Assembly: GCA_963816365.1 (NCBI GenBank)
Contig: CAWFKG010000017.1
Span: 28,415-92,414, forward strand
Source of the DNA: an uncultured Bacteroidales bacterium
GTDB taxonomy: Bacteria > Bacteroidota > Bacteroidia > Bacteroidales > VadinHA17
Direction of reading: 5' to 3'
DNA: 64,000 nucleotides
This document shows positions 10,549 to 57,506 of this stretch, piece after piece (the first letter of the stretch is position 1; each line of letters opens with the position of its first letter). The translations under genes were made by a program, and so were the position numbers. The notes below the pieces were generated by a model. It was given only the letters and a program-made list of their open reading frames with translations, made no database searches and was not told the origin of the DNA.

Positions 10549-11766
10549 TTATACCAGCGATAAAAGTTCGAAAGCAAATGCATTATAATTCTCTTCAGCA
10601 TTGAAATTCTCTTCCCAATTTCTACGCGAATACAGACGTTTCTTTCCCCATTTCTCCTTTTCTAAATAAACTCCATAAATCGCCTCAGCAATTTCAAGTG
10701 GGGAAGGATTGGCTGAAAGAAGCAATCCGTTTATATTATTTACTATCTCAGGTATACCCCCTACAGCTGTAGCAATTACAGGAATACCAAATGATTGTGC
10801 TTCCATGATTGATACAGGTATTCCTTCATTCGCACTTACAGTCAAAAACAGGTCAACTGGCTTCGATTTATAAAAACTGAATATTTCGGAGTGTGTCAGC
10901 TGGCCTGGTAAAAAACACTGAACCGAAGAATCTTTTAATGAGCTATTCGCCTTTTCTACGTATTCAACCAAATCACTTCCACTTCCCAAATGATACCATC
11001 TTACATTAATTGATGGGAATATGGTACTGAATAATATCAATGAATCTAAAATAAGATTTATTCGTTTGTTTGGATTAATCGCTGAACATGACACCAGGGT
11101 AAGACCAGTATTCCCTTTGGAAAGATTGGTAAATTCCGGATCGGAGGTTCCAAGACGGGAAAGATAATATTTATCAGAAAATTCAGGATATTTATCAAAT
11201 ATATAATTCCGGCCATGATCGGAAATCAGAAACAGCCTGTCTAAATTTTTTATTGTTGCCGCTTTAATAAATGTCAGACTTTTTTCTCCCCTCTCTTCAT
11301 ATAAATCGAAACCATGTGCTCTGCTTATCAGAATTTTAATCCTTCCTTCCCTCTTTAATAAAGCCAACGAAAAGGCGCTGAAATTAAGCCAGTAAGAATA
11401 ATGAACTGATGACTCTTCGGGTATTATTTTTGATAACCTGTTCTTTGTTAAAGTTGCAAATCCCAGGTATTTTAATGCTTTGAAAATAGAAATCTTTTTC
11501 AGTTCATTTTTTATTTCAGGAATTTCTAATATCAAATACCACGATAAAAGTCCGACCAGGTACATTCTAAAAAGGTGCCATTTTTTATCCTGAACCGGAG
11601 AAAGTATCTGAATATTTCCCGGTACATTTCTAGGGGCTCCATCTGCCTTGAAAGGTACTATATAAACATTATTAAAGTGAAGAGAAAGAATTGGGATCTC
11701 AGTTTCCAGGAAGGTCTCTGCGTTCCCAAATGGAAAACTATTTGTATATATTGTCAGGACTGACAT
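10549..11766 (-). CDS. glycosyltransferase family 4
   Basis: Intact 405-aa ORF with the motif SANEGIPVSIMEAQSFGIPVIATAVGGIPEIV. Confidence 0.8.
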   Translation of the reverse strand: MSVLTIYTNSFPFGNAETFLETEIPILSLHFNNVYIVPFKADGAPRNVPGNIQILSPVQDKKWHLFRMYLVGLLSWYLILEIPEIKNELKKISIFKALKYLGFATLTKNRLSKIIPEESSVHYSYWLNFSAFSLALLKREGRIKILISRAHGFDLYEERGEKSLTFIKAATIKNLDRLFLISDHGRNYIFDKYPEFSDKYYLSRLGTSDPEFTNLSKGNTGLTLVSCSAINPNKRINLILDSLILFSTIFPSINVRWYHLGSGSDLVEYVEKANSSLKDSSVQCFLPGQLTHSEIFSFYKSKPVDLFLTVSANEGIPVSIMEAQSFGIPVIATAVGGIPEIVNNINGLLLSANPSPLEIAEAIYGVYLEKEKWGKKRLYSRRNWEENFNAEENYNAFAFELLSLV

Positions 11767-13570: not shown

Positions 13571-14602
13571 TCAGACGTGTCCCGCTGATTTTTGTTTTTT
13601 CCTCTTCATTACCAAAAAGCTGACACCGAATACAAGAGTAAGAGTTGCTATAAATAGAGATGATACCGCAAAGACTCCTATCCTGGTTGGTTTGCAAAAA
13701 AGTTCCACAAGGTAAGACGGTTCTTTATATCTCATCCATTTTTGTTTATAATCTTTAAAAATGTGATCGTGTGTTTCATTGTATAAAAAATCAAGTAATT
13801 CGATATGAAAGTTATGATACCAGGGTTTTGAGGGTTTTCCCAGAATATCATAGTTTGAATGACCATTGTTGTCATAGAAATGAAGGTTGTGTTTAACAGA
13901 ACTTACCCCTTTTCTGAAAAGAAACTGAGCATCCGGATCGTTTGTCATTTTTTGGAAATCATTTAGCGCCTGTAACACAACTATCATTCCGTTTAACACC
14001 CTTGATTGGGGAACATTGTCATCCGCATATTCCTCATACCAGTACCCGGTACTGTCTTTATAAGTCACACCACCATCTTTAACTTCAGTATACAAGACAT
14101 TCATTGATTTTTTTGCATATTCAAGATATATGGTATCATCTGTTTTTTCAAATGCTTGTAAGAATGCTTGCATAGCTCTGCCCTGATTCATTGCTGAACG
14201 CCATGGAGAGGTCATATTATAAACCGGCCAGTTATAGTAATCCAGAAATATAATTGAACTATCATTAAGTACAATGTTATTCTTTATCAACCAGCTTATG
14301 CAGTTAAAAAATTTCCTGTCATCAGTTGAATCTTTTTGGCCAGACAATTTTATTGCCTGTTCAGCCACAGTTACAGAATTATATTGCCTGCCAAGGCTCC
14401 CCTCATAAACTACCAGCGGTACACCAGTAGAATCATTTTGAAGATACTGAGACTTTTTCCCCGAAAGTTTCTGGTATATCCTGGTTTCAAAGCGTTCAAT
14501 GGAGCCTCCTACCTTATTAACAATAAAATAAGTCAGGAGAACTGAGCTTGCGATAAGTAATGAAATTCGATAAAATGCTTGCTTTTTGTTCATATATCTC
14601 AA
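13571..14602 (-). CDS. D-glucuronyl C5-epimerase C-terminal-domain-like protein with N- and C-terminal membrane anchors
   Basis: Intact 343-aa ORF. PWRSAMNQGRAMQAF, WYEEY, RVLNGMIVVLQAL, FYDNNGHSNYD and WYHNFHIELLDFL line up with the conserved blocks of the animal heparan sulfate C5-epimerase C-terminal domain (recalled as WYSAMAQGQAIS, WYEEY, VLNGFMYSL). Confidence 0.7.
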   Translation of the reverse strand: MRYMNKKQAFYRISLLIASSVLLTYFIVNKVGGSIERFETRIYQKLSGKKSQYLQNDSTGVPLVVYEGSLGRQYNSVTVAEQAIKLSGQKDSTDDRKFFNCISWLIKNNIVLNDSSIIFLDYYNWPVYNMTSPWRSAMNQGRAMQAFLQAFEKTDDTIYLEYAKKSMNVLYTEVKDGGVTYKDSTGYWYEEYADDNVPQSRVLNGMIVVLQALNDFQKMTNDPDAQFLFRKGVSSVKHNLHFYDNNGHSNYDILGKPSKPWYHNFHIELLDFLYNETHDHIFKDYKQKWMRYKEPSYLVELFCKPTRIGVFAVSSLFIATLTLVFGVSFLVMKRKKQKSAGHV

Positions 14603-14626
14603 CTCAATGAGCTGATTGTCTGAAAA

Positions 14627-25765: not shown

Positions 25766-25768
25766 GTT

Positions 25769-25844
25769 TGAGGTTGAGGTTGAGGCTAATGAGGCTAAGG
25801 TTGAGGCTAGTTCTTTTAATCTTAACCTTAACCTTAACCTTAAA
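25769..25844. repeat. empty hairpin, (GAGGTT)n arm against (AACCTT)n arm
   Basis: Left arm 25769-25809, ~9-nt loop, right arm 25819-25844. There is one G-T wobble per 6-mer on the plus strand. The wzm stop codon (25840-25842) lies in the right arm. Confidence 0.8.
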
Positions 25845-26689: not shown

Positions 26690-26788
26690 GTTGAGGTTTA
26701 GTGTTTAAGGTGAGGCTGAGGTTGACAGTTGAGGATGAGGTTGAGGCTTAGTCTTCTTAGCTTTGGACCTTAACCTTAATCTTAGCCT
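26690..26788. repeat. hairpin of the same GAGGTT / AACCTT family with unequal arms
   Basis: Purine-rich arm 26690-26749 is followed directly by pyrimidine-rich arm 26750-26788. It spans the gap between the wzm start (26688) and the wzc-like stop (26782-26784). Confidence 0.75.
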
Positions 26789-29219
26789 TTATTCTTCACA
26801 TAATACTCCTTCGTCTTATCCGTCTTGCCATACTTACCATAATATTTACTGCCATAATAAGAAGTACCATACGAGTATCCATATCCGCTCATATAGCCAT
26901 ATCTGATACCGTATCCATAATATCCCGAAACACTTATATCGTTTAATATAATAGCCATATTCTTAAGTTCACCATGATTATTAAGCTGCTCTATCAGGTC
27001 GATAGTATTAAGTGAGGTATATCTCTGACGAACAATAAAGAGGTTAATATCTGCATATTCGGCAAGCAAAAGAGCATCTGTTACAATTGCTACAGGCGGA
27101 GTGTCAAAAATAATATAGTCATATTCTTTCTTTGCTCTCTGCATGAATTTTTTCATCAGATCAGTTTCAATAAGCTCAGCCGGGTTTGGAGGAACCGGTC
27201 CTGATGGAGCATAGAAAAGATTTTCCACCTGTGTCTTCTTTATTATTTCTTCATATTCACAGTTACCGCTGAGGTAGGTGCTCATACCCGGACTATTTTC
27301 AAATTCAAATATCTTGTTGATACGCGGTTTTCTGAGATCAAGTCCGATCAGTAAAACTTTCTTGCCAAGCATTGCTATTATAGCAGCCAGATTAATGGAA
27401 ATAAATGTTTTCCCTTCTGAGCTTATTGTAGATGATACAGCAATAACTGCAACTTTATTTTCCTTTACATAATATTTTAAAGCTGTGCGTACCGATCTGA
27501 AAGATTCGGATAAGGAAGATGCCGGTTTTTCGACAACAGGTATCTCATTTTTACTGTCACTGTGACTGATATATCCGATTACCGGAACTTTTGTCTTCCT
27601 GATCACATCTTTTTTATCAATTACCTTGTTGTTTAAAAAGTCAATCAGGGCTAATGCAGCAGCAGGCAACAAAAGTCCCAGAACAAGGGCTATCATCAGA
27701 TTTTTTCTTGTTTTTGGTTTTACAAGACCTCTTAATTGTGCATAGTCGATAGTACGGTTATCAGGCAATGTTGATGCCTGGGCAATACCTGATTCTGCAC
27801 GTTTTTCAAGAAGGTAGGTATAGATTGAATTGTTAAGATCGAACTGCCTTTGTATGTTAACAAATCTTTTTTCAATGGAAGGTAATTTGCTCATCTCTGT
27901 TTCATTTATTGATATTTTTTTCTCTGTTTCGGCTTTTGAAAGATTCAGACTTGGCAATGCAGTTTCTTATATTTTCCTTGAGAGCTTCACGTAGTTACTT
28001 CAGATTGTTTATCAATATGATTAAGTGCAGGCTGATTTCCTTCAATATTAAATCTAAGTTTTTCTTTTTCCTGCTTGAGATTGGAAAGATCATTAACAAG
28101 TCCAAGAAGCACCTGATCGGTTATTCCAATAACTGAAGGAGAGATAATTGTTCCTCTGGCATTCTTATCATTTACATATTCCAGCAAGGTAATTGTAATA
28201 TTGCAGCTGCAGTTCAACCTCCGCTTTATCATTATCAGCTTTTTTCAAGACTGTTCTGAATAATTGTATTCTCGTCCTTAAGATCAATAAAATTGTTTTC
28301 CATTCCTGAAATTCTCAAGATTTTTTGCAGCAACCTCAAGTGAATCGGATATTATATCAAGTTGTTCGTTAATAAATTTTATAGTTTGTTCGGCAATCTG
28401 TTTTTTAAAATCGAGACCATAATTGATATATACCTCCATAAGCATATTCAGATAATCGGCTTCCTGCTCAGGTACAAAACCTGAAACTGACAGGGTTACC
28501 AGTGAGGCATCTTTATCTCTAGGTGCCACAGATAAGTTTTGCCCGGTACTGGTTTGCAAGAGTTCCCGGATCTGTAAAATAAAAATAGTAACTATTTGAA
28601 TTCCCTTTGAATAAACAGGTTTAACCGGATTCCTTTTTTCAATAATAAAGTCAAATCCAAATTTAGAAAACCTTTCTCCAAAGTTCTTTTCCGTTTCAAA
28701 ATTCAACTTCCCATCAAGTTCAATCCTGTATTTTTGTTCACTTAATATTGTGATACTCACTTTAACTCCTTTTGGTTCAAGTTCAAGAGAATCATATACT
28801 ACTATGAAAGGACAGGTTTTATACATCATTGATTCAACAATTCCTCTTCTTCCCACACCAAAGTAAACAACATGAAAATCTTCAAGCTTCTTCATTACCA
28901 TATAATTCAGTCTGTATGACTTGAGGATCTCCATTTCATTTTTCAGGTTCTGCTGGCTCTTGAAAATATCTCCACCCGGGATGACACTTGTGGCAATACT
29001 GCCCATTCCCCCGTTCTGATCATCTTTTATAAGAAGTGTAGATGATACTGAATATATTCTTTGAGAATACCTGTTTATACCATAAGCCATCGACAATGAA
29101 ATAAACAATGCAACGGCAAACCAGTACCAGTTGCTCATAAAAAGAGACAGATACCGTTTTATGTCGATGCTCTCTTCTTCGGGAAAATTTGATTGAGGTG
29201 GGTAATTAGTTGGTTCCAT
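26782..29219 (-). CDS. polysaccharide co-polymerase / tyrosine autokinase (Wzc-like), several frameshifts
   Basis: Wzz-type N-terminus in ORF 28284..29219. P-loop SSTISSEGKTFISINLA, Walker B IFDTPPV and a Tyr-rich tail GYYGYGIRYGYMSGYGYSYGTSYYGSKYYGKY lie in ORF 26782..27957. Confidence 0.8.
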
Positions 29220-30129: not shown

Positions 30130-30156
30130 TTTAGTAATTATAAAGCAAAGTATGTG

Positions 30157-30328
30157 GAAAGATAAAAGGAAAAAGGGTAAAGTATGGTTAAAGATAAAAG
30201 ATAAAAGTCACAAGACAAAAGTAAGAGAGGTTGCTAATTAAGGTCTTCCTCATTTTACTTGTTTTTAACCAGATATTTTGTTAGTTCTTCAAACTTTTAT
30301 CTTTTTACTTTTGTCTTTTGTCTTGTTG
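30157..30328. repeat. purine-rich tract followed by a complementary pyrimidine-rich tract (AAAGATA / TTTTGTC repeats), forming a loose hairpin
   Basis: 30157-30230 (GAAAGATAAAAGG..AAGATAAAAGATAAAAGTCACAAGACAAAAGTAAGAGAGG) against 30247-30328 (CCTCATTTTACTTG..CTTTTATCTTTTTACTTTTGTCTTTTGTCTTG). The motif order is partly permuted. Confidence 0.55.
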
Positions 30329-30441
30329 TTCGGCAAGCTTCCGCCCCGTCAGTCACATCCTTAGAAGTGCCCGACTAGCCCTGAGAATCTATGTCTGCAG
30401 CGTTTCCAGCCTATATCTGAAACACGTCGCTCAATTCGTAA

Positions 30442-31123: not shown

Positions 31124-31670
31124 GGGCGCGAGGTATGCGGTTTGCGGTGTGCGGCAGAAGGTACGCAGAAGATTATTTGCTGTATGAGGTTTAATATAAA
31201 ATCATTATCTTTAGGCTCAGTGCTAATTTAAATTATTAATCTAAAACGCTGCATCATGGGAAATTTTCAAAAACTTCGTGTTTGGCAAATTGCCAAAGAA
31301 CTTGCCGTTCAAATTTACAAAATGACTCAAAATCTTCAGTTTAGAAAAGATCTGGGATTCAAAGATCAGATTCAAAGATCTGCAGTCAGTATTCCTTCTA
31401 ATATAGCTGAAGGAGATGAATCAGGTACTGATAAATTATCAGTCAGATATTTTTATATAGCTAAAGGATCTATAGCGGAACTTATGACACAATTAATAAT
31501 TGCCAACGAGATTGGTTATATTGATTCTGAAATTAAAAGTCAATTAGTTGATACCTGTGATAAATTATCTTCAATGTTGACTAGACTTATAAATGTAAGG
31601 CGTCAGATGAAATAAAATCGTCTATCCGAAAAACAAATACCGCATACCGCACGCCGCGTACCGCAAGCCC
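31124..31670. mobile_element. hairpin-bounded cassette a (four-helix-bundle cargo), arms (TGCGGTN)n / (ACCGCAN)n
   Basis: Left arm 31124-31169 and right arm 31637-31670 match at about 25 of 34 Watson-Crick positions by eye. Most of the remainder are G-T pairs. Confidence 0.65.
31256..31615 (+). CDS. four-helix-bundle protein (23S rRNA intervening-sequence protein family, PF05635/TIGR02436-like)
   Basis: Intact 119-aa ORF. KDQIQRSAVSIPSNIAEG and YIAKGSIAEL are the family hallmarks. Confidence 0.85.
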   Translation: MGNFQKLRVWQIAKELAVQIYKMTQNLQFRKDLGFKDQIQRSAVSIPSNIAEGDESGTDKLSVRYFYIAKGSIAELMTQLIIANEIGYIDSEIKSQLVDTCDKLSSMLTRLINVRRQMK

Positions 31671-36140: not shown

Positions 36141-36657
36141 GTGTTGCTGGTTGCTGGTTGCTGGTTACTTCTTACGATAATTAGCAATTAGCAACTAGCA
36201 ACTCGTAACTAGCAACTGGCTAAGTTTTCCAATCAGATTCTACATATTTGATGAAATTGTTAATCATTTTTCCTAAAGTGTCAAGATCCTTAAGAATTTC
36301 TACAAATTCTGAAATCTTTGGGTACAGTTCAATAACAGTAACTGCCTGATTAGTTGCTTCATCGCAGGAAGCTTGAGAATAAACTAAATAACGAATAAAC
36401 TCGGCTTTATACCTTCTTCTGCCGTATCCTTCGACAATATTATCCTTTACGCTTTTTGTCGATCTTCGGATTTGACTTCCTTGTTCATATAGTTCAAACT
36501 GAGGTAACTTAAGTGATGCCTTGTGTACCCTTATAGCTATAACATACGCCAGCTTATAAATTTCCAAATCTTTATAACTCTTCATAATTATTCCTTTCTA
36601 CTTTAGCACGAGCAACAAGCAACAAGCAACAAGCAACTAGAAACTAGAAACCAGAAC
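36141..36657. mobile_element. hairpin-bounded cassette b, arms (TTGCTGG)n / (AGCAACN)n with two alternative right-hand partners
   Basis: 36141-36167 can pair with 36178-36218 (local) or with 36605-36657 (across the gene). Confidence 0.65.
36220..36585 (-). CDS. four-helix-bundle protein (PF05635-like, second subfamily)
   Basis: Intact 121-aa ORF with GSQIRRSTKSVKDNIVEGYGRRRYKAEFIRYL. Confidence 0.8.
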   Translation of the reverse strand: MKSYKDLEIYKLAYVIAIRVHKASLKLPQFELYEQGSQIRRSTKSVKDNIVEGYGRRRYKAEFIRYLVYSQASCDEATNQAVTVIELYPKISEFVEILKDLDTLGKMINNFIKYVESDWKT

Positions 36658-39158: not shown

Positions 39159-39210
39159 CCCCGAAGCCTGATACCTGATGCCTGATGCCTGATGCCTGAT
39201 GCCTGATACC
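39159..39210. repeat. tandem heptamer array (CCTGATG/CCTGATA) x7, a single arm without an adjacent partner
   Basis: CCCCGAAGCCTGATACCTGATGCCTGATGCCTGATGCCTGATGCCTGATACC fills the whole gap between the convergent stops at 39158 and 39215. Confidence 0.85.
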
Positions 39211-39214
39211 TTTA

Positions 39215-42190: not shown

Positions 42191-42890
42191 TCTTTTCTTT
42201 GCCCCCCTGCCCGAGAAGTTAAATCTCTGTTTATCCTTTTGCCCCCCTGCCCCCCTAAAGGGGGGTTCGTACTCGTTATTTAAGTGAGTTTTGTATATTT
42301 GAAATATTGCTGCATTATTAATGAAAACAGTAATATCTAAAATTACTATGTATTATGGAGCGGATTCCGCGACATTAAGACACCCATATACTTAGAAGGA
42401 GTATGACTAAAGATGAAGGGGTACTATGGAAAAAGTTAAAGGACAGAAATGTATTTAGCAGTAAAATTTAGAAGACAACATCCTGTTTATAATTTCATTG
42501 TTGATTTTTATTGTCATGAATATAAGCTTGTCATAGAAGTTGATGGAGATATTCATAATGATGAAATTGCATACCAGTATGATTTGGGCAGAACTAAAGT
42601 GCTTAACAATTTTGGATTGAAAGTAATCCGATTTACAAATGATCAGATACTTTATAGTTTAGATTCTGTAATAGAGGAAATCCAAAGAGAAGTTGCGAAT
42701 CGAACTCCCCTTAGGGGGGCAGGGGGGCAAAAAAGAGATGAGCATAATAAAATTGGGCAGGGGGGCAAAAAAGAGATGAGTATAATAGAGTTGGGCAGGG
42801 GCAGAGATGAGCATAATAAAATTGGGCAGGAGGGCAAAAAGAGATGGCATTAGGATAATAATGCTGGGCAGGGACAAAAATAACAGAATG
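42191..42890. mobile_element. hairpin-bounded cassette with DUF559 cargo; arms are inverted arrays of a ~38-bp unit
   Basis: The left side has 2 units ending TTTTGCCCCCCTGCCCCCCTAAAGGGGGG (42191-42266). The right side has 5 units, GGGCAGGGGGGCAAAAAAGAGATGAGCATAATAAAATT and variants, starting at 42717, 42755, 42793, 42824 and 42866. Confidence 0.7.
42348..42853 (+). CDS. DUF559 (Vsr-like endonuclease fold) protein, 2 N-terminal frameshifts, C-terminus reads into the repeat arm
   Basis: ORF 42449..42853 (FRRQHPVYNFIVDFYCHEYKLVIEVDGDIH..LKVIRFTNDQI) parallels the intact copy at 56944..57327. Upstream frames give MYYGADSATLR.. and ..MTKDEGVLWKKLKDR. Confidence 0.65.
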
Positions 42891-44608: not shown

Positions 44609-44920
44609 TTACAGACTTAACGGCGCAAAGGCGCAACGGCGCAAAGGCGTGAAGAAATATCCAATTTCCTCCGCAATGATAAGTTGTGTTAACAACTCTG
44701 CACTTGAACCTTTTGCAATATAAAAATGACGGATAGATTGTTTATCTGTTTCAAGTTCATCACCTTCAGCAATATTTGAAGGTACGCTAACGGCAGATCT
44801 CTGAATCTGATCTTTCAATCCAAAGTCTTTTGAAAATGACAGCGTTTGAGTTAGTTTATAAATTCTCACAGCTAATTCCTTAGCCAGTTGCCACACACGA
44901 AGCTCTTGAAAATTTCCCAT
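44609..44920 (-). pseudogene. 3'-truncated four-helix-bundle gene; the last 16 codons are read from the repeat arm
   Basis: The first 88 aa are about 80% identical (70 of 88 by hand count) to the protein of 31256..31615. Helix 4 is missing and is replaced by FFTPLRRCAFAPLSL, encoded by the (GGCGCAAA)n arm. Confidence 0.75.
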
Positions 44921-45098
44921 AATACAGCGATATTAGATTTATAAATAAAAGTTAGCACGTAGGATAAAGATATAACTTTTCTCTGAGATTAACTGGATGT
45001 TAGTTGTTTCCTAAAATTGCATATCGTAATCCCAATAATTATTAATAAACTTTCTCAGCAAGGCCGTTGCGCCGTTGTGCCGTTGTGCCGTTGTGCCA
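44617..45098. mobile_element. hairpin-bounded cassette c, arms (GGCGCAAN)n / (GCCGTTGN)n 8-mers
   Basis: 44617-44650 TTAACGGCGCAAAGGCGCAACGGCGCAAAGGCGT against 45062-45098 GGCCGTTGCGCCGTTGTGCCGTTGTGCCGTTGTGCCA. Confidence 0.7.
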
Positions 45099-46127: not shown

Positions 46128-46730
46128 CTATCTCCCCAGCTGCTGTTTAACTATCTTTGCGATATACTTCCCCAGAATATCGAACTCGAGATTAACAACT
46201 GTTCCTTTCCTGATCTGATGAAAATTAGTGACTTCATGGGTAAAAGGAATAATTGCAACTTCAAATGATGCAGCTTTTGAGTTTACTACTGTAAGACTTA
46301 CTCCATTGACCGATATTGATCCTTTTTCGACAGTTATATAATCGTCCTGAGCAGGCTCATATTCGAAAGTGTAATACCAGCTGCCTCCTGCTTCCTTAAC
46401 CAAAGAGCAGACTGCGGTCTGATCAACATGTCCCTGAACCATATGTCCGTCAAGGCGTCCATCCAATCGGGTACTGCGCTCCAGATTTACCTTATCTCCT
46501 GGCTTTAAGGAGATCCCAGATTAGTTTTTTCAAGCGTCTCTTTTATGGCAGTCACAGTATATGTATCCTCCGTCTTTTCTGACGACTGTCAGACAGACCC
46601 CGTTATGCGAAATGCTCTGATCGATCTTAAGTTCATTGACAAATGAACATTTCATGGTTATGTGAAGGTTGTCCTTTTCTTTTTCAAGTTTTACAACCTG
46701 AGCAGCTTCTTCAATAATTCCGGAAAACAT
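46128..46730 (-). CDS. ribE: riboflavin synthase, frameshifted at ~46470-46560
   Basis: ORF 46530..46730 (MFSGIIEEAAQV..SISHNGVCLTV) and ORF 46128..46466 (RLDGHMVQGHVD..SISVNGVSLTV..NLEFDILGKY). Confidence 0.85.
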
Positions 46731-46855
46731 TTTATTATCAGAATTAAATTAATGGGTGTAAAGTTAGAGAAAATTAGTAAAAGGACACACGACACACGAC
46801 TCACGACACACGACTCAAATACGAAGAATTGTTTTGACTTTTTAAAAATGATCTT

Positions 46856-46863
46856 TAAATTTG
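46856..46863 (+). promoter_or_regulatory. candidate -7 box TAAATTTG inside cassette d
   Basis: It matches TAnnTTTG and lies 38 nt upstream of the ATG at 46902, internal to the left arm. Confidence 0.4.
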
Positions 46864-46901
46864 ATTTGGAATAAAAAGTAATCACTTAATCTCGCTGTGC
46901 T

Positions 46902-47261
46902 ATGAGCAATTATGAAAATTTGAAGGTTTGGCATAGAGCCGTTGAACTTGCAGTTTCAATCTATAAGTTAACAGGAACGAACAAATCATTTGTTAAAGAT
47001 TTTGGATTAAAAGATCAAATACAGAGATCATCTGTGAGTATTTCCAGTAATATTTCCGAAGGTGATGAACTCGGAACTGATAAGCAAGCTATCAGGCAAT
47101 TCTTTATCGCAAAAGGATCGGCAGCAGAACTTTATACTCAGCTTACTATTTCCTCTAAAATAGGATACCTGAATGAGGAAGAAGCCAAGTATTATTTGAA
47201 TGAATGCAAAGGCATTTCATCCATGCTGACTAATCTCATTAAATCGAGATCATCAGAATAA
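46902..47261 (+). CDS. four-helix-bundle protein (PF05635-like)
   Basis: Intact 119-aa ORF with KDQIQRSSVSISSNISEG and FIAKGSAAEL. Confidence 0.85.
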   Translation: MSNYENLKVWHRAVELAVSIYKLTGTNKSFVKDFGLKDQIQRSSVSISSNISEGDELGTDKQAIRQFFIAKGSAAELYTQLTISSKIGYLNEEEAKYYLNECKGISSMLTNLIKSRSSE

Positions 47262-47312
47262 ATTATAATAGATTCTATTTAGTTCTTTAAATTCTCTATT
47301 CTGCACGGTGAT

Positions 47313-47760
47313 TTATTCACCGTGTGTCGTGAGCCGTGCGTCGTGTGTCCAAATCATCTTCTTCCCAAACCCCAATCTGTTATCCGTCATCTTAATATGA
47401 GTAAGTTTTACGACCCAGAGATGAGTATCCATGAGCGCTGCCGGAGGAAATTTTTTGAGATACGCCCATTTTGCTTTTGATAACAATTCTGCCTTCAGGT
47501 TCTGAGATTATTCCCTGAAATTGTATTCCGCGGATCTTTCCTATTACCATAGTCTCAAGAACAACCGATCCTGCAACCAACGGATTTTTGACGAATTCTT
47601 TCCCGTGACGGGTATCAGCATCAGTAGTGAAGACCAGCATATTTTCTTCTTCAAGATAAACATAAAAACAATTAGCACACCAGGGTTCATTTTCAACTGT
47701 CGTGGCAATTGTAAGAACATGATGCTTCCTGAAGAACTTTATGATCGTGATGTCAACCAT
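47313..47760 (-). CDS. YhbP-like (UPF0306, pyridoxamine 5'-phosphate oxidase fold) protein, one frameshift; the last 13 codons come from the cassette arm
   Basis: ORF 47392..47760 (HHVLTIATTVENEPWCANCFYVY..IRGIQFQG) plus a second frame reading KAKWAYLKKFPPAALMDTHLWVVKLTHIKMTDNRLGFGKKMIW, then THDARLTTHGE*. Confidence 0.7.
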
Positions 47761-47786
47761 TATTCATCCATCTGAAACCATTACTG

Positions 47787-48341
47787 TCAAATCCTGGCAA
47801 GATCGATGATCCGGTCAACCACCGTCATCACAAGATCATCAATGGTCTTTGGGTTACTGTAAAATGAAGGTGTTGCCGGACAGATAATTGCTCCTGCCAG
47901 GGTAAGTGTCTTCATATTATTAATATGTATAAGGTTGTAGGGAGTCTCACGGGGAACAATTATCAGTCTTCTTCTTTCCTTAAGCATTACATCGGCAGTA
48001 CGGGCTATCAGATCATCGGAGGTTCCATTGGCGATCCGTCCCACAGTACCCATCGATGCAGGACATATTATCATTGTATCATACCTGGAGGATCCGGATG
48101 CGAACGGAGCATAAAACGATGTTATTGTTGTATTCCTTCGCTGCTCCTTCGGCGTGAAATTCTGACCCTATTTCTGATTTCCAGATCTCTCTGCCGGTAT
48201 CTGAAAAAATTACTGCAATCTCCTTCAGCGGCGCCTGTATCTCGTGAAGCTTCTCCAGGAGCTTATATGCATAAATGGAACCGCTGGCTCCGGTTATGGC
48301 GAGGATTATCTTTCGGCGTTTTGATTTGATAAATTGGCCAT
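47787..48341 (-). CDS. ubiX: flavin prenyltransferase UbiX, frameshifted
   Basis: RRKIILAITGASGSIYAYKLLEKL (ORF 48079..48363) and MIICPASMGTVGRIANG..RRLIIVPRETP (ORF 47787..48074). The likely ATG at 48341 needs one extra A in a CAAAAC run. Confidence 0.8.
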
Positions 48342-48501
48342 TGTAAATTGAAAAGTGGTACAAAGATAATTATATTTGCACTATGCACTCGCCCTAGCGA
48401 TTCACTTCGGGACAGTCTAACTCTTTGCTAACGGCCGCCGGCTGTTCGTAAGCTCGGTGCTCCTAAAGGGAGCTAAATTGTGAGCCACGAGAATTGCAAC
48501 A

Positions 48502-49246
48502 TCACGCCGCTGAGCCAGAGGGGACCACAGAGGCGAAGAACAGTTGACAAGACCATTTTTGCATCAGCAGTCTCTCCGTCAGAACTCCAACCCCTGTCGA
48601 AGCCATCTCCCTTATCACCTCCACCTTCCTGTTAACCGGAATCACAACTTCTTTCGGATCAATGAGCCAGAGAGATGCTCTGGCCGGCGCATAGCTGATC
48701 AGTCCTGCTGCCGGATAGACATTCAAAGACGATCCTACCACAACAAAAATATCTGCATTCCGCCGTAAGATTCACCGCCTCATCCATCATCGGAACCTGC
48801 TTCACCAAACCAGACAATATGAGGACGAAGCTGGCTTCCTTTTTCACATTTGTCACCCGGATTAATATCCTTATAACCAATGTCATATATCAGCGATTCA
48901 TCCATACTGCTTCGTGCTTTTGTGAGTTCCCCGTGAAGATGGACGATTTTTGTGCTGCCGGCTCTTTCATGCAGATCATCAATATTTTGCGTAATGATCT
49001 GTACATCAAAATATTTTTCAAGCTTTGCCAACCCGAAATGACCTTCATTTGGCTTGCTGGAGGCCAGCTGTCGTCTTCTTTCATTATAGAATCTCAGAAC
49101 AAGGTCCCTGTTCTTCATCCAGGCCATCAGGTGTTGCAACTTCAGTTACATCGTACTCTTCCCAGAGTCCGCCGGAATCCCTGAAGGTCTTTATGCCGCT
49201 TTCGGAGCTCATGCCGGCACCGGTTAAGACTGACTAGTTTCTTCAT
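48502..49246 (-). CDS. cobB: NAD-dependent protein deacylase (Sir2/CobB family), several frameshifts
   Basis: ATG at 49246. The frames give [47 protein letters not shown] and [12 protein letters not shown]. Confidence 0.8.
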
Positions 49247-49315: not shown

Positions 49316-49571
49316 GACTCAGAGACTCTAGGGACTAAGGGACTGAGGGACTGCACACCTAAATAGTCTAGGATTGAGTGACATATCGACAGTCTTCCAT
49401 TATTTTCTCATACAGATCCATCAGGGAAAGCTCTTCGTCATTATTGCAACTTAAGAGAATCAGAGGTTTTGTAGGGAAGATATACTAAAGAGTAGTCTAA
49501 CCAGTATGCTTCATTACAGACTCTTCGTCTCTAGTCCCTATAGTCCCTAAGTCTCTTAGTCTCTTAGTCTG
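49316..49571. mobile_element. decayed cassette: arms of the GACTAAG / CTTAGTCT family around a ~40-codon remnant of a four-helix-bundle gene
   Basis: Arms at 49316-49352 and 49518-49571. The minus-strand remnant 49368-49457 reads ..LLSCNNDEELSLMDLYEKIMEDCRYVTQS*, which resembles the C-terminus LSCDYMTEQEHFDLNETYDKILGKL of 54156..54527. Confidence 0.6.
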
Positions 49572-49642
49572 TTAATTATTCGGGATTTTACTATCTTTGT
49601 CCGAATTTTTTATAATAACAAGTTTTATTAATCGCAGATCCA

Positions 49643-52600
49643 ATGGGGAAACGGTTTCCTGAATATAAAGGTCTTGATCTTTCGAAGGTAAATAAGGAGA
49701 TTCTCAGAATATGGGATGAGAATGATACTTTCAACAGAAGTGTACGTGAACTGAACGGAAAAGGTGAGTTTGTATTCTATGAAGGACCGCCTTCAGCAAA
49801 CGGAATACCTGGAATTCATCACGTGATGGCACGTACGATCAAGGATGCAATCTGCCGTTTCAAAACCCAGTGCGGTTATGAAGTGAAACGCAAGGCAGGA
49901 TGGGATACCCATGGACTGCCGGTTGAGCTTGGCGTCGAAACAGCTCTTGGCATCACAAAGGAAGATATCGGAAATAAAGCTTCTCCTAAATATATTTCTG
50001 TTGAAGATTACAACAAGGAATGCCGTAAGGCTGTAATGAAATACACCGATCTCTGGGAAGACCTTACCAGGAAAATGGGATACTGGGTTAATATGGATCA
50101 TCCGTATGTGACTTACGATAACCGTTATATCGAAACACTCTGGTGGCTGCTCCAGCAACTCTATAAAAATGGTCATCTCTACAAGGGTTATACAATACAA
50201 CCATATTCCCCGGCAGCAGGCACCGGACTTAAGCTCCCATGAACTTAACCTGCCCGGCTGCTACCGCGATGTAAAGGATACCACCTGCATAGCACTGTTT
50301 AAGCTTACCAGAGATAAAAAATCGGAATTCCTTTATAATAAGATAGATACTGCCGATGTACATATGATGGCCTGGACAACAACTCCATGGACACTTCCAT
50401 CAAATACTGCACTGGCAGTAGGAAAAGAGATAATTTATATAAAAGTCCGGAGCTTCAATCCTTATTCCGGTGAACCAATCACAGTAATAATAGCTAAAGA
50501 TCTTCTCAATTCATTGTTTCCTGCATCGAATGCAGGTCTTGACTTCACCGAATATAAACCCGGTGATAAAAAGATCCCGTTCAGAGTTTCAGGGGAATTC
50601 ACCGGAGCGGAGCTTGAAGGCATAAATTATGAACAGCTTATCGACTGGATGAATCCGGGGGAAGGTGCATTCAGGGTACTGACCGGTGATTTTGTCACAA
50701 CTGAAGACGGTACCGGGATTGTTCATATTGCTCCTACCTTTGGTGCAGACGACTACAAGGTAGCAAACGAAAATGGGGTACCTCCTCTTCTTGTTAAAAG
50801 AAAGGACGGCTCCTTTGGACCTATGGTTGATAAAAGAGGCTACATGGTCCCGATTGCAGATCTTGATGAGACTTTTGTTAAGAATAATGTCAACAAAAAA
50901 ACTTATGCTGCGTTCGAAGCTCATCCGGTAAAAAATGAATATGATGATAATATTCCTGCCGATGCAGATACGATCGATGTTGAAATAGCAGTGATGCTTA
51001 AGCAACAGGGTAAGGTTTTCAGGATCGAGAAGCAGATACACAGCTACCCTCATTGCTGGAGAACAGATAAACCTGTTCTCTACTATCCTCTCGATGCATG
51101 GTTCATACGTACAACAGCATTCCGCGACCGTATGATTGAACTTAATAATACCATAAACTGGAAACCACAATCCACAGGTTCCGGAAGGTTTGGTAAGTGG
51201 CTTGAAAATCTTGTTGACTGGAACCTTTCACGTTCACGTTACTGGGGAACTCCTCTTCCGATATGGATCACTGAAGACAAAAAAGAGGAAAAATGCATTG
51301 GCTCCGCTTCTGAACTAAAAGCTGAGATTGAAAAATCGATCAAAGCAGGATTCATGAAGCAAGAATCCTCTTGCAGAATTTACAGCAGGAGATAATTCAC
51401 CTGAAAATTACGAACATTTCGATCTGCACCGTCCGTTCGTTGATGAAATTATCCTTGTCAGTGATACGGGAAAGAAAATGTTCCGCGAAGCAGATCTGAT
51501 TGATGGCTGGTTCGATTCAGGAGCGATGCCCTATGCCCAGGTTCATTATCCTTTTGAGAATAAGGACAATTTCAGTGAAATGTTCCCGGCTGATTATGTT
51601 GCAGAAGGTGTCGACCAGACAAGAGGCTGGTTTTTCACTCTTCATGCCATAGCAACCATGATCTCAGACTCAGTTGCTTTCAGAAACATTATTTCAAACG
51701 GACTCGTTCTTGATAAGAACGGAAATAAAATGTCGAAAAGACTTGGTAACGCCGTCGATGCATATTCTGCAATTGAGGAAAATGGTCAGTGATCCTTTGC
51801 GCTGGTACATGATTACCAACTCCCAGCCCTGGGATAATCTTAAGTTCGACATTACAGGAGTGGATGAAGTAAAACGTAAATTTTTCGGTACTTTATACAA
51901 TACCTATTCCTTCTTTTCTCTCTACGCAAATGTTGATAATTTCAGATATGCAGAAAAGGAGATCCCGGTCAATGAGAGACCCGAAATAGACCGCTGGATA
52001 ATCTCGCTTCTTAACTCACTTGTTAAAGAGGTTAGCGGTTGTTATAATGATTATGATCTGACCCGGGCCGGACGTGCAATACAGGATTTTGTAACCGAGA
52101 ACCTGAGCAACTGGTATGTACGCCTCAACAGGAAACGGTACTGGGGCGGCGATTATGACAAGGATAAACTTGCTGCTTACCAGACCCTTTATGTATGTCT
52201 TGAGACAGTCAGCCAGCTTGCAGCTCCAATCGCTCCGTTTTATATGGATCGTCTTTTCTGCTGATCTTAATGATGTGACCGGCAGACATAAGGATAATTC
52301 TGTTCACCTGGTTCTTGTTTCCCGAATATGATGAATCACTTATCGATAAGGCTCTTGAGGAAAGAATGGAGATTGCCCAGAAAATATCTTCAATGATACT
52401 TGGATTGAGGAGGAAAGTAAGCATTAAAGTCCGCCAGCCGCTGGCCAGGATAATGGTCCCGGTTCCTGATAACAACTTCAGGGAGAAATTTGAAGCAGTA
52501 AAAGATCTGATACTTGCTGAAGTCAATGTCAAAGAAGTCGAATATATCGATGACACTTCCTCAATTCTTGTCAAGAAAATAAAACCTAATTTCAAAACGC

Positions 52601-53113
52601 TCGGTCCGCAGATATGGCAAGCTTATGAAGGATATAAGCAACTCGATTGCAGCATTCACACCTCAGGAAATTGTTGCATTCGAAAACTCCGGAACTCATG
52701 CTGTTACTATTAACGGACAGGAGATTATTCTGACCACCGGAGATGTTGAAATAATTTCAGAGGATATACCAGGCTGGCAGGTTGCAAATGACGGTAAGCT
52801 GACTGTCGCTCTTGATATAACTGTATCTGACGATTTGCGTTATGAAGGTATTGCGAGGGAGTTTGTAAACCGGATCCAGAATATCCGTAAGGAAAACGGG
52901 TTTGATGTTACTGATAAAATCACAGTCTTATCGAAGATCATGATTTTGTGCATGAAGCAGTAACCAGACATTCATCCTATATCGCTTCACAGACGCTTGC
53001 TACTTCTGTCGAGTTAGCAGAAACGTTTCGACGGAACCAATATACGTGAAGTAGATATTGATGAGTGGGTGGTGAAGGTGCAGGTGAAGAAGCAAACTTG
53101 TAGAACCTTCTGA
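49643..53113 (+). CDS. ileS: isoleucine--tRNA ligase (long Bacteroidota type), at least 6 frameshifts
   Basis: PSANGIPGIHHVMARTIKD (HIGH region), the editing domain in ORF 50169..51395, KMSKRLGNAV (KMSKS), and C-terminal frames to ..EVDIDEWVVKVQVKK. Confidence 0.9.
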
Positions 53114-53158
53114 TTTAAGCTTGAATAGGTTTATCCATTTTTGTATTATTATACTTAA

Positions 53159-54098
<940 letters not shown>

Positions 54099-54101
<3 letters not shown>

Positions 54102-54710
54102 CTGACGGACTTAGTGACTAAGGGACTTAGTGACTAAGGGACTCAGAGACGAGGGTTACCAACTCCAATTCTCTGGATGGAGGGACATGTTGACAAGCTT
54201 TCCTAATATTTTGTCATAGGTTTCATTAAGGTCAAAATGTTCTTGTTCGGTCATATAGTCACAACTTAACGAGAAATCCAACCAGGTTTGAGTTTCTGCT
54301 GCTTCGCCCTCCGAATCCGTGAGTTTTGCAATAAATGATTTTGGATATCTTCTTTTTCTGAAGGCTTCTGCTAGATTTGAGCATACTGACCTGGAAGATC
54401 TTCTTATTTGATCTGTTAAAGAATAAATCTCTTCTTTGGGAAATCTCTTGGTTAGTTCAAAAATCTTCATTGCTACATCGAACAAAAGACAATACACGTC
54501 TAATTCCTTGTGAGATCTGATTTTCATTTTTCAGCGATTTAAGTAAGACAATTATTATTCCAATCTAAAATTAGAACAAATACTTGAATCCTATTCATAA
54601 TTTGTTTTATATTCTCATCATCCCTATAGTCTCTTAGTCTCTTAGTCTCTTAGTCTCTTAGTCTCCTTAGTCTCTTAGTCTCTTAGTCTCTTAGTCTCTT
54701 AGTCTCTCTT
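54099..54710. mobile_element. hairpin-bounded cassette e, arms GACTTAGTGACTAAGG.. / (CTTAGTCT)n
   Basis: The left arm 54099-54155 begins with the uxs TGA. The right arm 54621-54710 is about 10-11 tandem 8-mers. Confidence 0.7.
54156..54527 (-). CDS. four-helix-bundle protein (PF05635-like, second subfamily)
   Basis: Intact 123-aa ORF with TDQIRRSSRSVCSNLAEAFRKRRYPKSFIAKL. Confidence 0.8.
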   Translation of the reverse strand: MKIRSHKELDVYCLLFDVAMKIFELTKRFPKEEIYSLTDQIRRSSRSVCSNLAEAFRKRRYPKSFIAKLTDSEGEAAETQTWLDFSLSCDYMTEQEHFDLNETYDKILGKLVNMSLHPENWSW

Positions 54711-54758
54711 CTTTTATTTAAATCCCTGGTCGGTCATCGCATTTAGTTAATTTCCTGA

Positions 54759-54770: not shown

Positions 54771-56717
54771 ATGATAGACCGCTCAACCATAGAACGAATT
54801 CTGGATGCCGCTCAGATTGTTGATGTGGTACAGGAGTTTGTTCCACTGAAGAAACGGGGAGTGAACTACCTGGGGTTATGTCCATTTCATAATGAAAAAA
54901 CACCTTCATTCACAGTATCTCCATCGAAAGAGATTTTCAAATGTTTTGGATGCGGAAAAGTGGGAAACTCGGTCAATTTTGTAATGGAACATGAGCATCT
55001 GACCTACCCCGAAGCGCTTAAATACCTTGCAAAGAAATATCACATTGAGGTCATTGAAAAAGAGCTTTCACAGGAAGAGCTGGAAAAACAGAATGAGAGG
55101 GAGAGCCTCCTTGTGGTTTCATCATATGCTGCCAGGCAGTTCTCTGAAAACCTGTTTCATAATGACGAGGGAATATCTATCGGACTTACCTATTTCAGGG
55201 AACGGGGCTTCCGTCAGGATACATTGAAAAAATTTGAGGTAGGTTACTGCTTTGAGAAACGGGACGCATTCTCGAAAAAGGCTCTTGAAGATGGATACAA
55301 ACAGGATTTTCTTGTAAAGACCGGTCTTTCAGTTCAGCATGAAGACCACATCTTCGACAGGTTCAGCAGCAGGGTGATGTTCCCTATACATTCTCTTTCC
55401 GGACAGGTACTCGGTTTCGGAGGCAGAATACTTAAAACTGATGTCAAAACAGCTAAATATCTGAATTCTCCCGAATCAGAGATATATCATAAAAGCAGAA
55501 TATTATACGGAATATACCAGGCGCGGAAATCGATAACACAGGAGGACAAATGTTATCTGGTTGAAGGTTATACCGATGTTATGTCGTTACATGAAGCAGA
55601 TATTGAAAATGTTGTGGCATCATCGGGAACCTCTCTGACGCAGGAACAGGTAAGGCTTATAAAAAGATTTACCCAGAATATTACAATTCTTTATGATGGT
55701 GACCCTGCCGGGATTAAAGCCTCCATAAGGGGTATTGACCTGGTGCTTGAAGAGGGGATGAATGTCAAGATTGTCCTTATCCCCGATAATGAGGACCCTG
55801 ATTCTTATTCAAAAAAATTAAGCAATGAGGAATTCCGGAAATTCCTTAAGGAGAATGAAACTGATTTCATACGTTTTAAGACGCAGCTTCTTCTCTCTGA
55901 AGCAAGTAATGATCCGGTCAAAAGAGCTGATCTTATACGCGATGTTGTAAAGTCAATTGCTGTTATCCCCGAAGCTATAACAAGGACAGTATATATAAAG
56001 GAATGCAGCACCGTACTTGAGGTCAGTGAGCCCATCCTATATCATGAAGTCAATAAGCTCCGGCAGCATAAAAGTTTTCAGGACAGGAATAAATATCCGG
56101 GTCCCGAGGATCTTCCTGTTCCTCCGCCGGTTATAGTCAAACCTGTTCAACGCGAGACTGTTACGTATTATTCTGAAAAGGAGATAATCAGACTGCTTTT
56201 AAAATTCGGAAATGTAGAATTTGAAAGGACCCTGAATAAAGAAGATGGCAAAGAGGAGATGCTATCTGTAGCTGATTATATTGTCAGGGAGATAACATCT
56301 GACGATCTTTTGTTTGACGACAGCGTATGCTCAAAGATTTTTGCCGATTTCAGATTTCATGTCGAGCATGGTCTGATCACAGGTGACAAACAATTCGTAA
56401 AACATGGAGATCCTGAGATCTCAAGTCTTTCAGCCGATCTGCTTGCCGACTCGCATGAGCTGAGCAGGATCTGGAAGGATAAGCAAACTTTCGTTGAGAC
56501 GGAAGATATGAAGCTGAAAGAGATTGTAGGCGATGCCGTCCTCAAATTCAAGAGTGATAAAATAATGATTAAGAGAAAAGAGATAATGTCACTTCTTGAA
56601 GAAGCCGTAAAAGCCAACGATACTGAGAAGATACTACAGCTGCAAAAAAGATATGCAAATCTTAGTGTTGTCCTGGGATTAATTTCAAGGAAACTGGGGA
56701 ACAGGATATTGCTGTAA
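54771..56717 (+). CDS. dnaG: DNA primase
   Basis: Intact 648-aa ORF. The zinc ribbon is CPFHNEKTPSFTVSPSKEIFKCFGCGKVG and the TOPRIM motifs are EGYTDV..YDGDPAG. Confidence 0.9.
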   Translation: MIDRSTIERILDAAQIVDVVQEFVPLKKRGVNYLGLCPFHNEKTPSFTVSPSKEIFKCFGCGKVGNSVNFVMEHEHLTYPEALKYLAKKYHIEVIEKELSQEELEKQNERESLLVVSSYAARQFSENLFHNDEGISIGLTYFRERGFRQDTLKKFEVGYCFEKRDAFSKKALEDGYKQDFLVKTGLSVQHEDHIFDRFSSRVMFPIHSLSGQVLGFGGRILKTDVKTAKYLNSPESEIYHKSRILYGIYQARKSITQEDKCYLVEGYTDVMSLHEADIENVVASSGTSLTQEQVRLIKRFTQNITILYDGDPAGIKASIRGIDLVLEEGMNVKIVLIPDNEDPDSYSKKLSNEEFRKFLKENETDFIRFKTQLLLSEASNDPVKRADLIRDVVKSIAVIPEAITRTVYIKECSTVLEVSEPILYHEVNKLRQHKSFQDRNKYPGPEDLPVPPPVIVKPVQRETVTYYSEKEIIRLLLKFGNVEFERTLNKEDGKEEMLSVADYIVREITSDDLLFDDSVCSKIFADFRFHVEHGLITGDKQFVKHGDPEISSLSADLLADSHELSRIWKDKQTFVETEDMKLKEIVGDAVLKFKSDKIMIKRKEIMSLLEEAVKANDTEKILQLQKRYANLSVVLGLISRKLGNRILL

Positions 56718-56729
56718 GACATACAGTAC

Positions 56730-57506
56730 TCACCCCCTTCATCCTCCATAGAGAGTGGCGGGGAGGCAAAACCGTCAACTTAAGAAGTTGAATATAGTAA
56801 AATATGGAGAGAGTTTAGTACAAAACAGAATGTAAAATATTGGATATAAGCCTGATACATTTCCCCTCCTTTTGAAGGAGGGGTGGCCGGACCACTTTAT
56901 AATTATGATACAAATACTGATACCGGCCGGGGTGGTTGATTGTTTATTCAAATTCCGGATCTTTCATTTTGAAGATTTTTCTTATCTCATTTTTTACGAA
57001 TTCAGGTTCCTGGAATACCAGCCTGTTTTCAAACCTTAGTACTGAGAATCCAAGGCCTTCAAGATATTGATCTCTTTTTTTATCTTTTTCTATTTTATGA
57101 TATTCACCATGCGGATTTCCATCAAGCTCAATTACCAGTTTTTCTGAAGTACAACAAAAGTCAACTATGTAATTACCTATACTATGTTGTCTTCTGAATT
57201 TTCTTTCATTAAGCTTTTTTGATTTTAAAATGTTCCATAACTCAGCCTCAGCAGAAGTGGACTTGTTCCTAAGAGATGATCTAAAAAACTTAAGGCTTTT
57301 TTTGTTAAAGAGGATTTTGTTTTTCATGCCAATAAAGGTAAGAAAGAAATCAATGAATCAACCACCCCGATCGGGAAATAAAACACTGTATATATCAGAT
57401 AATCAATCGTCCCGACCACCCCTCCTTCAAAAGGAGGGGAAACTTTTTTATGCAATATCTCGTTCATCAATAGAGATTAAGTAGACGGCATGGGGTGGGG
57501 AGGTGA
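56730..57506. mobile_element. hairpin-bounded cassette with intact DUF559 cargo and three nested inverted repeats
   Basis: The outer pair is 56730-56786 / 57467-57506. The middle pair is 56858-56896 / 57409-57444, and each member contains its own CCCCTCC..GGAGGGG hairpin. The inner pair is 56919-56941 / 57354-57376. Confidence 0.75.
56944..57327 (-). CDS. DUF559 (Vsr-like endonuclease fold) protein
   Basis: Intact 127-aa ORF with AEAELWNILKSKKLNERKFRRQHSIGNYIVDFCCTSEKLVIELDGNPH..LRFEN. Confidence 0.8.
   Translation of the reverse strand: MKNKILFNKKSLKFFRSSLRNKSTSAEAELWNILKSKKLNERKFRRQHSIGNYIVDFCCTSEKLVIELDGNPHGEYHKIEKDKKRDQYLEGLGFSVLRFENRLVFQEPEFVKNEIRKIFKMKDPEFE

Follow-up and report, generated by a model that had tools for sequence, protein, structure and literature searches.

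A PF05635 gene between inverted arms of tandem 8-nt units in a Bacteroidales uxs-dnaG spacer: a probable intervening-sequence-like cassette outside rRNA

The stretch of DNA analyzed here, called the window in the following, comprises 64,000 nucleotides (nt) of a contig from an uncultured Bacteroidales bacterium. In this window a UDP-glucuronate decarboxylase-type gene (uxs, 53340-54101, plus strand) and dnaG (54771-56717, plus strand) are separated by a spacer of 669 nt. The spacer is occupied by a small gene of the PF05635 family that is enclosed by two inverted arrays of tandem 8-nt units, and the entire unit of ~635 nt is referred to as cassette e. The same family of 8-mers recurs at two further sites of the window, once around a gene remnant and once with no gene at all. 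Cassette e is composed of the following parts:

54097-54707: cassette e as a whole, a GACTNAG-type arm of ~50 nt and a (CTTAGTCT)x10 arm of 87 nt around the cargo gene
54088-54146: left (uxs-side) arm, an AT-rich outer stem segment followed by ~6 GACTNAGN units arranged as the 16-mer GACTTAGTGACTAAGG x3
54156-54527, minus strand: cargo gene, intact, 123 amino acids (aa), PF05635/TIGR02436, antisense to uxs and dnaG
54528-54620 (93 nt), minus strand: AT-rich spacer or leader, from the start codon of the cargo gene to the dnaG-side arm
54621-54722: right (dnaG-side) arm, ~10 tandem CTTAGTCT units and the AT-rich outer stem segment CTTTTATTTAAA

An earlier, sequence-only reading had described an intact gene of 123 aa between arms of unequal length, antisense to both neighbors, with the left arm beginning at the stop codon of uxs. 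The open reading frame (ORF) at 54156-54527 on the minus strand and the arrays of ~50 and 87 nt bear this out. Reading of the sequence together with Tandem Repeats Finder gives the left array as 2.9 copies of the 16-mer AGTGACTAAGGGACTT at 54095-54146 (the program places the end at 54143), and the uxs stop TGA (54099-54101) lies at its beginning. The right array at 54627-54707 was found by Tandem Repeats Finder as 10.0 copies of TAGTCTCT with 97% matches. The interval between the arms measures 474 nt, and outside the arrays the inverted repeat is lengthened by the AT-rich segments TTAAATAAG and CTTTTATTTAA (~54088-54098 and ~54711-54722). With up to two mismatches the 15-mer CTTAGTCTCTTAGTC has 22 matches in the window, all of them confined to three sites (54097, 49316 and 7926), while shuffled sequences contain 0.16 matches on average and 3 at maximum. 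The proposal that one 8-mer family forms the arms at three sites is thereby confirmed. In minimum-energy RNA folds of cassette e the arms pair with each other on both strands. Compared to shuffles the plus-strand RNA reaches z = -3.8, the empty hairpin RNA -4.6 and the remnant site -3.7, with long stems being formed at all three sites.

The cargo protein matches PF05635 with an E value of 2.2e-29 and 102.2 bits (cut-off 33.8) over residues 7-111 of 123, and TIGR02436 with 6e-27 and 94 bits (cut-off 24). Both models describe the 23S ribosomal RNA (rRNA) intervening-sequence protein, an Avd-like four-helix bundle. Matches to two solved pentameric four-helix bundles (PDB 2gsc_A, E 1.3e-9; 2rld_A, E 4.8e-7) place the cargo, by sequence, among the putative relatives of four-helix-bundle pentamers such as XCC0516. 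A distant kinship to Avd can be seen in the PHROG family 'Avd protein of DGR' (diversity-generating retroelement; 1.4e-7) and in PF22296 bAvd (E 7.5e-6, below the cut-off), with the NCBIfam Avd model giving 20 bits at a cut-off of 80. No match to PADLOC defence models was obtained at E <= 0.01, the profile searches that returned PF05635 and TIGR02436 gave no transposase family, and no close relatives of the cargo were found in viral contigs. To our knowledge, the role of the very common PF05635 proteins is known only as a distant kinship to the retroelement Avd protein. Relatives with more than 76% identity occur by the thousands in metagenomes, mostly in Bacteroidales metagenome bins, and the subfamily spans several phyla at 60-85% protein identity. 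With a ratio of nonsynonymous to synonymous substitution rates (dN/dS) of 0.07 compared to the copy of the related contig L011 and 0.16 compared to that of L222, the intact cargo is under purifying selection. The leader is 93.5% identical to that of L222, and its block TTTTAGATTGGAATAATAATTGTCTTAC.TAAATCGCTGAAA is kept in close Bacteroidales relatives; it may act as the cargo's own promoter.

Closer relatives (L222-L225) share cassette e with the window in both position and orientation, their cargo being 97% identical. In the relatives L012-L015 the uxs-dnaG spacer measures 155-179 nt, with small G/C hairpins and without a GACTNAG array; the relatives that lack cassette e are those with an intact gene at the ileS site described below. 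In L011 the spacer holds a different, non-coding element of 617 nt (10957-11573) with nested inverted repeats, in which no gene was called and no Rfam match was found, and which therefore is a third kind of occupant. All alleles diverge directly after uxs ...TATTTCAGG and reunite at ATATCTTTGA before dnaG. From this point of divergence it follows that the last five uxs codons and the stop come from the cassette. The end of uxs reads ...RVLLNK in the window and ...RKSL(G) in relatives, a change of the neighbor's last codons by the cassette. The whole unit, including its arms, is present or absent at orthologous sites among related strains.

The other two sites of the arm family consist of the following parts:

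49316-49353: left arm of the decayed cassette, GACTCAGAGACTCTAGGGACTAAGGGACTGAGGGACTG
49367-49459, minus strand: PF05635 remnant, the 3' end of the gene, reading ...LSCNNDEELSLMDLYEKIMEDCRYVTQS up to the stop, with the N-terminal two-thirds gone
49521-49574: right arm of the decayed cassette, with the inner part CTCTTCGTC, the complement of GACGAAGAG, and the outer end CTTAGTCTGTTA
7926-7973: left arm of the cargo-less hairpin, ~6 units of GACTTAGA type
7977-8044: right arm of the cargo-less hairpin, ~8.5 units of CTTAGTCT/CTCAGTCT type

For 49316-49571 a cargo remnant had been claimed from the letters alone. The remnant stands, the site being corrected to 49316-49574: its arms surround an interior of 167 nt (49354-49520) with ~95 nt of the 3' end of the gene on the minus strand. 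Using tblastn no match was obtained for the remnant. It was found by local nucleotide alignment, with a score of 39 compared to 18.9 +/- 2.4 (maximum 30) in shuffles, and shows 71-72% nucleotide identity, with indels, to cassette e and to the L011 cassette. In 10 related contigs an intact gene of 123 aa (P0003, 89% identical to the cargo of cassette e) lies between a SIR2 gene and ileS. This position is orthologous to 49316-49574 of the window, with 81-86% nucleotide identity of the flanking genes, and the decayed state is real because relatives carry an intact cassette there.

The orientation of the remnant is opposite to that of the relatives' intact gene. At this site inner arm motifs track the gene and outer arm ends track the flank: GACGAAGAG adjoins the 5' end of the gene in relatives, and the outer end CTTAGTCTGTTA is common to the window and relatives. 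This pattern and the opposite orientation fit a flip of the cargo by recombination between the inverted arms. Alternatively, the remnant may go back to an independent insertion in the opposite direction, for which its identity of only ~71% to the relatives' gene speaks. Three contigs with identical cargo at the ileS site (L014, L018 and L010) exhibit another sequence beyond a point 13 nt ahead of the start codon. Their first ~110-140 nt differ, the left arm and the SIR2 side are missing, and all three contigs end there, which points either to a rearrangement of the allele or to an assembly that broke off at the arm.

The site 7926-8045, taken as empty in the sequence-only reading, is indeed cargo-less. 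Its extent is corrected to two arms (7926-7973 and 7977-8044) around a loop of only ~3-4 nt, the right arm ending at the stop codon of a minus-strand gene (8045-8677). In the relative L099 this stop codon is followed by a GACTAAG-type array on one side only, ~40 nt long, and in two further relatives no array was found there. The comparisons with relatives at the SIR2-ileS, uxs-dnaG and 7926 sites thus bear out the three states of occupancy that had been proposed for this arm family. Cassettes decay by internal deletion to a remnant, and both the bare hairpin and the single array of the same 8-mer family are consistent with further steps of decay.

Arm length varies between strains while the cargo is the same or nearly the same, which supports the slippage expansion suggested earlier for the unequal arms. 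The proposed check of arm copy numbers between strains gave a range of x2.5 to x10.5 at the ileS site, where the 16-mer GACGAAGAGACTGAGG occurs x2.5 in three contigs and x5.5, x7.5 and ~x10.5 in others (the latter in L012 and L004, whose upstream sequences are the same). The opposite arm is 39 nt long throughout, and the cargo protein is identical across the contigs. At the uxs-dnaG site the arms measure ~50/87 nt (uxs side/dnaG side) in the window and ~125/34 nt in four independent assemblies that match one another, a comparison limited by the fact that short-read assemblies can miscount repeats; exact repeat counts in the window need caution as well because many of its genes are frameshift-split. 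Each arm grows and shrinks on its own, and the data support replication slippage in each arm separately as the source of the length changes. Among the split genes of the window are ileS (49643-53100, at least 6 ORFs) and uxs (53162-54101, 2 ORFs), and SIR2, a flavoprotein gene and ribE (46128-49139) are shorter than in relatives. The pattern resembles that of indel errors in a long-read assembly or of pseudogenes. The ileS-uxs spacer (53098-53162) is also variable in length, with 64 nt in the window and ~174 nt in L222.

A survey covered 80 genome loci and 120 metagenome loci, and arms with z >= 5 were defined as significant. Significant inverted arms occurred at 39 loci from Bacteroidales, Ignavibacteria, Cloacimonadota, Chloroflexota, Desulfobacterota and other phyla. 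In 39/39 the upstream arm is purine-rich with a conserved G-N-G-A core, and the period is 8 or 16 in most. The similarity of the arm unit to GAGACTAA drops with cargo identity (rho 0.60, p 5e-5). A second cargo family, DUF559, comes with arms of C6/G6 type at two loci in different genomes. In the ribE-side spacer, the window and L017 contain a PF05635 cassette with GACACAC-type arms, L012 a DUF559 cassette and L011 a decayed DUF559-type cassette; certain spacers are therefore repeatedly occupied, each cassette having its own arms. Judged by these sequence comparisons, the arms belong to the cargo and not to the site. The upstream neighbor is co-directional with the cargo at 57/66 genome loci (p 1e-9), and at many non-Bacteroidales loci the purine-rich arm reaches to 10-30 nt from the start codon. 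The Bacteroidales branch that includes cassette e has the conserved AT-rich leader, and an antisense position is possible in it.

Taken together, we consider cassette e to be probably an intervening-sequence-like selfish cassette that resides between protein-coding genes, outside rRNA. Its unit consists of the PF05635 gene, a leader that is short and AT-rich, and tandem 8-nt units forming the arms of an imperfect, long inverted repeat. In a transcript reading across the cassette the arms would pair into a stem of ~50 bp, which RNase III may cut in analogy to the rRNA intervening sequences. Such a cleavage would separate the insert from the host message and limit the harm to neighboring genes. 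Most family members would express their cargo via read-through from the co-directional upstream gene, which fits because 57/66 neighbors are co-directional and the purine arm is close to the start codon, and members of the Bacteroidales branch including cassette e have their own leader and could sit antisense. Replication slippage would change the arm lengths, and recombination between the inverted arms would flip the cargo. New sites may be reached by homologous recombination from arm to arm, or by gene conversion that targets hairpins with arms of the same family; empty hairpins of this family would then be possible recipients.

Comparison of the window with L222 bears on such an exchange. 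In dnaG 139 of 421 synonymous sites differ (synonymous divergence, dS, 0.44), in the cargo 6 of 73 (dS 0.09; Fisher p 5e-6). A sliding comparison revealed 95-99% identity in the interior of the cassette and 78-94% in most flanking 100-nt windows, with local peaks of 96-98% in dnaG; the arms align worst. The lineages may have exchanged the interior after their split, with the arms bounding the tract, which homologous recombination from arm to arm would explain; alternatively, the nucleotide sequence of the interior is itself under constraint.

Several observations weigh against a selfish cassette that moves and is excised as RNA. The low synonymous divergence of the cargo could reflect the nucleotide-level constraint just mentioned instead of a recent transfer. 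No target-site duplication is definable at the uxs-dnaG alleles, and because these differ along the entire spacer, the insertion cannot be delimited exactly. No transposase or recombinase was noticed in the window, whose ORFs were not systematically screened for them. Mismatches between the arms are not skewed to G-U pairs for either the sense or the antisense transcript (90 vs 85), and therefore no RNA-level selection on the stem is claimed; the complementarity of the arms may stem from a common origin at the DNA level. Finally, ~80% of the arrays in the metagenome scan described next stand alone, and the arrays may exist independently of the cassettes.

As the main rival interpretation, hairpins and arrays could also be host elements, such as stabilizers of 3' ends, insulators or terminators after stop codons, with the PF05635 gene as a passenger that inserts into or beside hairpins already present. 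We regard this as unlikely, although the single arrays provide arguments in its favor. Scanning of metagenome contigs for exact (CTTAGTCT)3 gave 120 loci (L102-L221), of which ~10 have a partner arm 387-540 nt away, ~8 are tight hairpins (loop <=41 nt) and a few are intermediate. PF05635 was found near the array at ~10 loci that partly overlap with the partner-arm set, on the purine-arm side in 10/10. Most arrays thus lack both a partner arm and PF05635, and single arrays tend to stand directly behind a stop codon with their purine-rich strand as sense (31 vs 12, p 0.005). The GACTNAG/CTTAGTCT unit moreover holds TAA/TAG/TGA and with its period of 8 places stops in all three frames of both strands, and cargo-less short-period hairpins occur elsewhere in the window (25768-25843, 26690-26789, 30147-30329 and 39166-39211). 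Against a host function, however, arm type tracks cargo type over loci, genomes and phyla, and relatives without the cargo at uxs-dnaG are also without the arms. The exact 24-mer search is biased toward long, homogenized arrays, and single arrays are also expected as the last step of decay, as is illustrated by the one-sided array in L099. They may represent this last stage or be elements in their own right.

A non-autonomous miniature inverted-repeat transposon, the arms of which serve as ends for a transposase encoded elsewhere while the small gene is carried along, appears quite improbable to us. The inverted ends, small size, many copies per genome, presence/absence polymorphism and the spread of the cargo subfamily over several phyla at 60-85% identity would be in accordance with it. 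The ends are, however, not conserved, as arm unit and length vary freely, no target-site duplication can be defined, and among the ORFs of the window, which were not systematically screened for one, no gene was noticed as transposase-like. In addition, the cargo is the constant part of the family and under strong purifying selection. Cassette e was consequently not assigned to the miniature inverted-repeat elements, since arm units and lengths differ among copies and strains and a duplication is not definable.

That mis-assembly of low-complexity sequence produced the 8-mer arrays and the inequality of their lengths, which the sequence-only reading had named as its refutation and to which the frameshift-split genes of the window (pointing to indel errors) and the many metagenome contigs terminating inside such arrays would lend some weight, is highly improbable, because four independent assemblies from four samples (two ENA and two Logan) agree in the same cassette and arm structure, the arm lengths at the ileS site recur in separate samples (x2.5 in three contigs, ~x10.5 in L012 and L004), and such arrays flank the cargo family in dozens of genomes.

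Beyond the selfish cassette, a more far-reaching interpretation would be an undescribed class of mobile elements with tandem GNGA-type 8-mer arms as working ends. The Avd-like PF05635 protein would recognize the arms or assist in their maintenance, matching arrays at other places of the genome, whether empty hairpins or single arrays, would be landing pads onto which the cargo is copied through recombination between arms, and the rRNA intervening sequences would form the rRNA-resident minority. We consider this a doubtful extension. If true, it would give a function to the PF05635 family, to which none has been assigned since intervening sequences were found around 1990, and would explain the origin of the rRNA intervening sequences.

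Besides cassette e, the window contains at least four PF05635 cassettes, each with its own inverted short-period unit, and two or three DUF559 cassettes:

31125-31669: cassette with PF05635 ORF 31256-31615 (119 aa), arm unit of GGTATGC type
36143-36656: cassette with PF05635 ORF 36220-36585 (121 aa), arm unit GTTGCTG / AGCAACA
44619-45097: cassette with PF05635 ORF 44609-44920 (103 aa), arm unit of GGCGCAAA type; truncated, the ORF reads into the arm
46783-47350: cassette with PF05635 ORF 46902-47261 (119 aa), arm unit GACACAC
42449-42853, plus strand: DUF559 (nuclease-fold) ORF, G/C-run arms 42237-42262/42707-42732
56944-57327, minus strand: DUF559 (nuclease-fold) ORF, G/C-run arms 56860-56903/57399-57442
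3974-4165: decayed copy of the 56944-57327 DUF559 cassette, the same arms and first ~100 nt without the gene

Full and decayed states therefore recur in a second cargo family, as the decayed DUF559 copy at 3974-4165 demonstrates. A general rule that the purine-rich arm comes first was rejected: it holds in 39/39 cases within the cargo subfamily but fails in the window for the PF05635 cassettes with ORFs starting at 36220 and 46902 and for DUF559. The handedness of the arms is probably inherited within the cargo subfamily and provides no mechanistic clue. In the cassette at 36143-36656 a small hairpin (GTTGCTGG x3 / TAGCAAC x5) directly adjoins the cargo on the left, and another AGCAACA array follows on the right. 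This cargo therefore stands between direct copies of a single arm, which is what its insertion within the right arm, or a duplication of that arm, would look like. Directly after the right arm of the first DUF559 cassette, a 38-nt unit GGGCAGGGGGGCAAAAAGAGATGAGCATAATAAAATT is repeated x3.8 (42717-42850) and repeats the arm end. The cargo-less hairpins and arrays mentioned above (25768-25843, 26690-26789, 30147-30329 and 39166-39211) lie in and around a polysaccharide gene cluster and have other units, namely TTGAGG/CCTTAA, AAAGATA/CTTTTAT and a single GCCTGAT x6.6 between convergent genes.

PF05635 proteins are seen here to travel as repeat-armed hairpin cassettes outside rRNA, and a comparison of related strains shows these being gained, lost, resized and degraded. 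What had long been a curiosity of annotation thereby becomes amenable to study: nature supplies sites in the filled, the decayed and the empty state, and cleavage of the stem by RNase III is a concrete prediction. The cassettes are a possible source of the sporadic intervening sequences of rRNA. For practical work it matters that they break assemblies, alter the last codons of neighboring genes and may be mistaken for other repeat loci.

Among known repeat systems, a CRISPR array does not apply, as the units have 8 nt and are contiguous, compared to repeats of ~23-50 nt with unique spacers, and there is no cas context here. PF05635 genes wedged between cas genes have been reported and left unexplained (PMC3936711). 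The Avd protein of diversity-generating retroelements is a distant sequence relative of the cargo from the same fold family. A retroelement of this type was rejected all the same: the Avd models remain below their cut-offs, and no reverse transcriptase, template or variable repeat was seen near the cassette in a weak YxDD motif scan. Of the stop-to-stop ORFs of at least 200 aa, two contain YxDD in this test, uxs and a 351-aa ORF at 13574-14626.

The STRR heptamer arrays of heterocystous cyanobacteria, reportedly described by Mazel et al. in 1990 (J Bacteriol), consist of 7-8-nt units in tandem that recur at many places between genes. They resemble the arrays discussed here but belong to another phylum and have other units. 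A literature link of STRR arrays to a flanked PF05635 gene or to inverted pairing was not found. REP/REPIN-RAYT systems likewise comprise a small gene bracketed by inverted repeats, with the same repeat often standing between genes without it. RAYT is, however, an HUH Y1 transposase, whereas the cassette cargo is a four-helix bundle without a known catalytic motif, and this PF05635 cargo rules out an identity as REPIN-RAYT. Furthermore, REP units are palindromes conserved within a genome, in contrast to the cassettes, almost every one of which has its own tandem unit. In the literature covered, to which subscription journals did not belong, PF05635 genes flanked by tandem-repeat inverted arms were not found described.

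The closest resemblance is to the 23S rRNA intervening sequences with an S23p ORF, which are known from Leptospira, Coxiella, Xanthomonas, Brucella and rRNA insertions of the candidate phyla radiation (CPR). The intervening sequence of Coxiella has 428-444 nt, terminal inverted repeats that form a 28-bp stem and an S23p (PF05635) ORF; RNase III excises it (PMC4990558). At one and the same site, rRNA intervening sequences can occur with an ORF, in degenerate form or without an ORF (bioRxiv 10.1101/2024.02.27.582315). Cassette e shares the PF05635 cargo, the size class (428-444 vs ~635 nt) and the ORF inside an inverted-repeat stem. Further likenesses are the occurrence of ORF-bearing and ORF-less versions and a sporadic distribution that suggests horizontal transfer. 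By analogy, cassette e most likely works like an rRNA intervening sequence. It is not classed as one because it lies between uxs and dnaG and not in helix 25 or 45 of 23S rRNA; at the gathering threshold Rfam gave no rRNA or other family in the window. Its arms are strain-variable tandem 8-nt arrays in place of unique complementary ends, and its cargo is antisense to the neighbors. The location at protein genes, the tandem 8-mer arms and the copy number that varies between strains set it apart from the rRNA intervening sequences.

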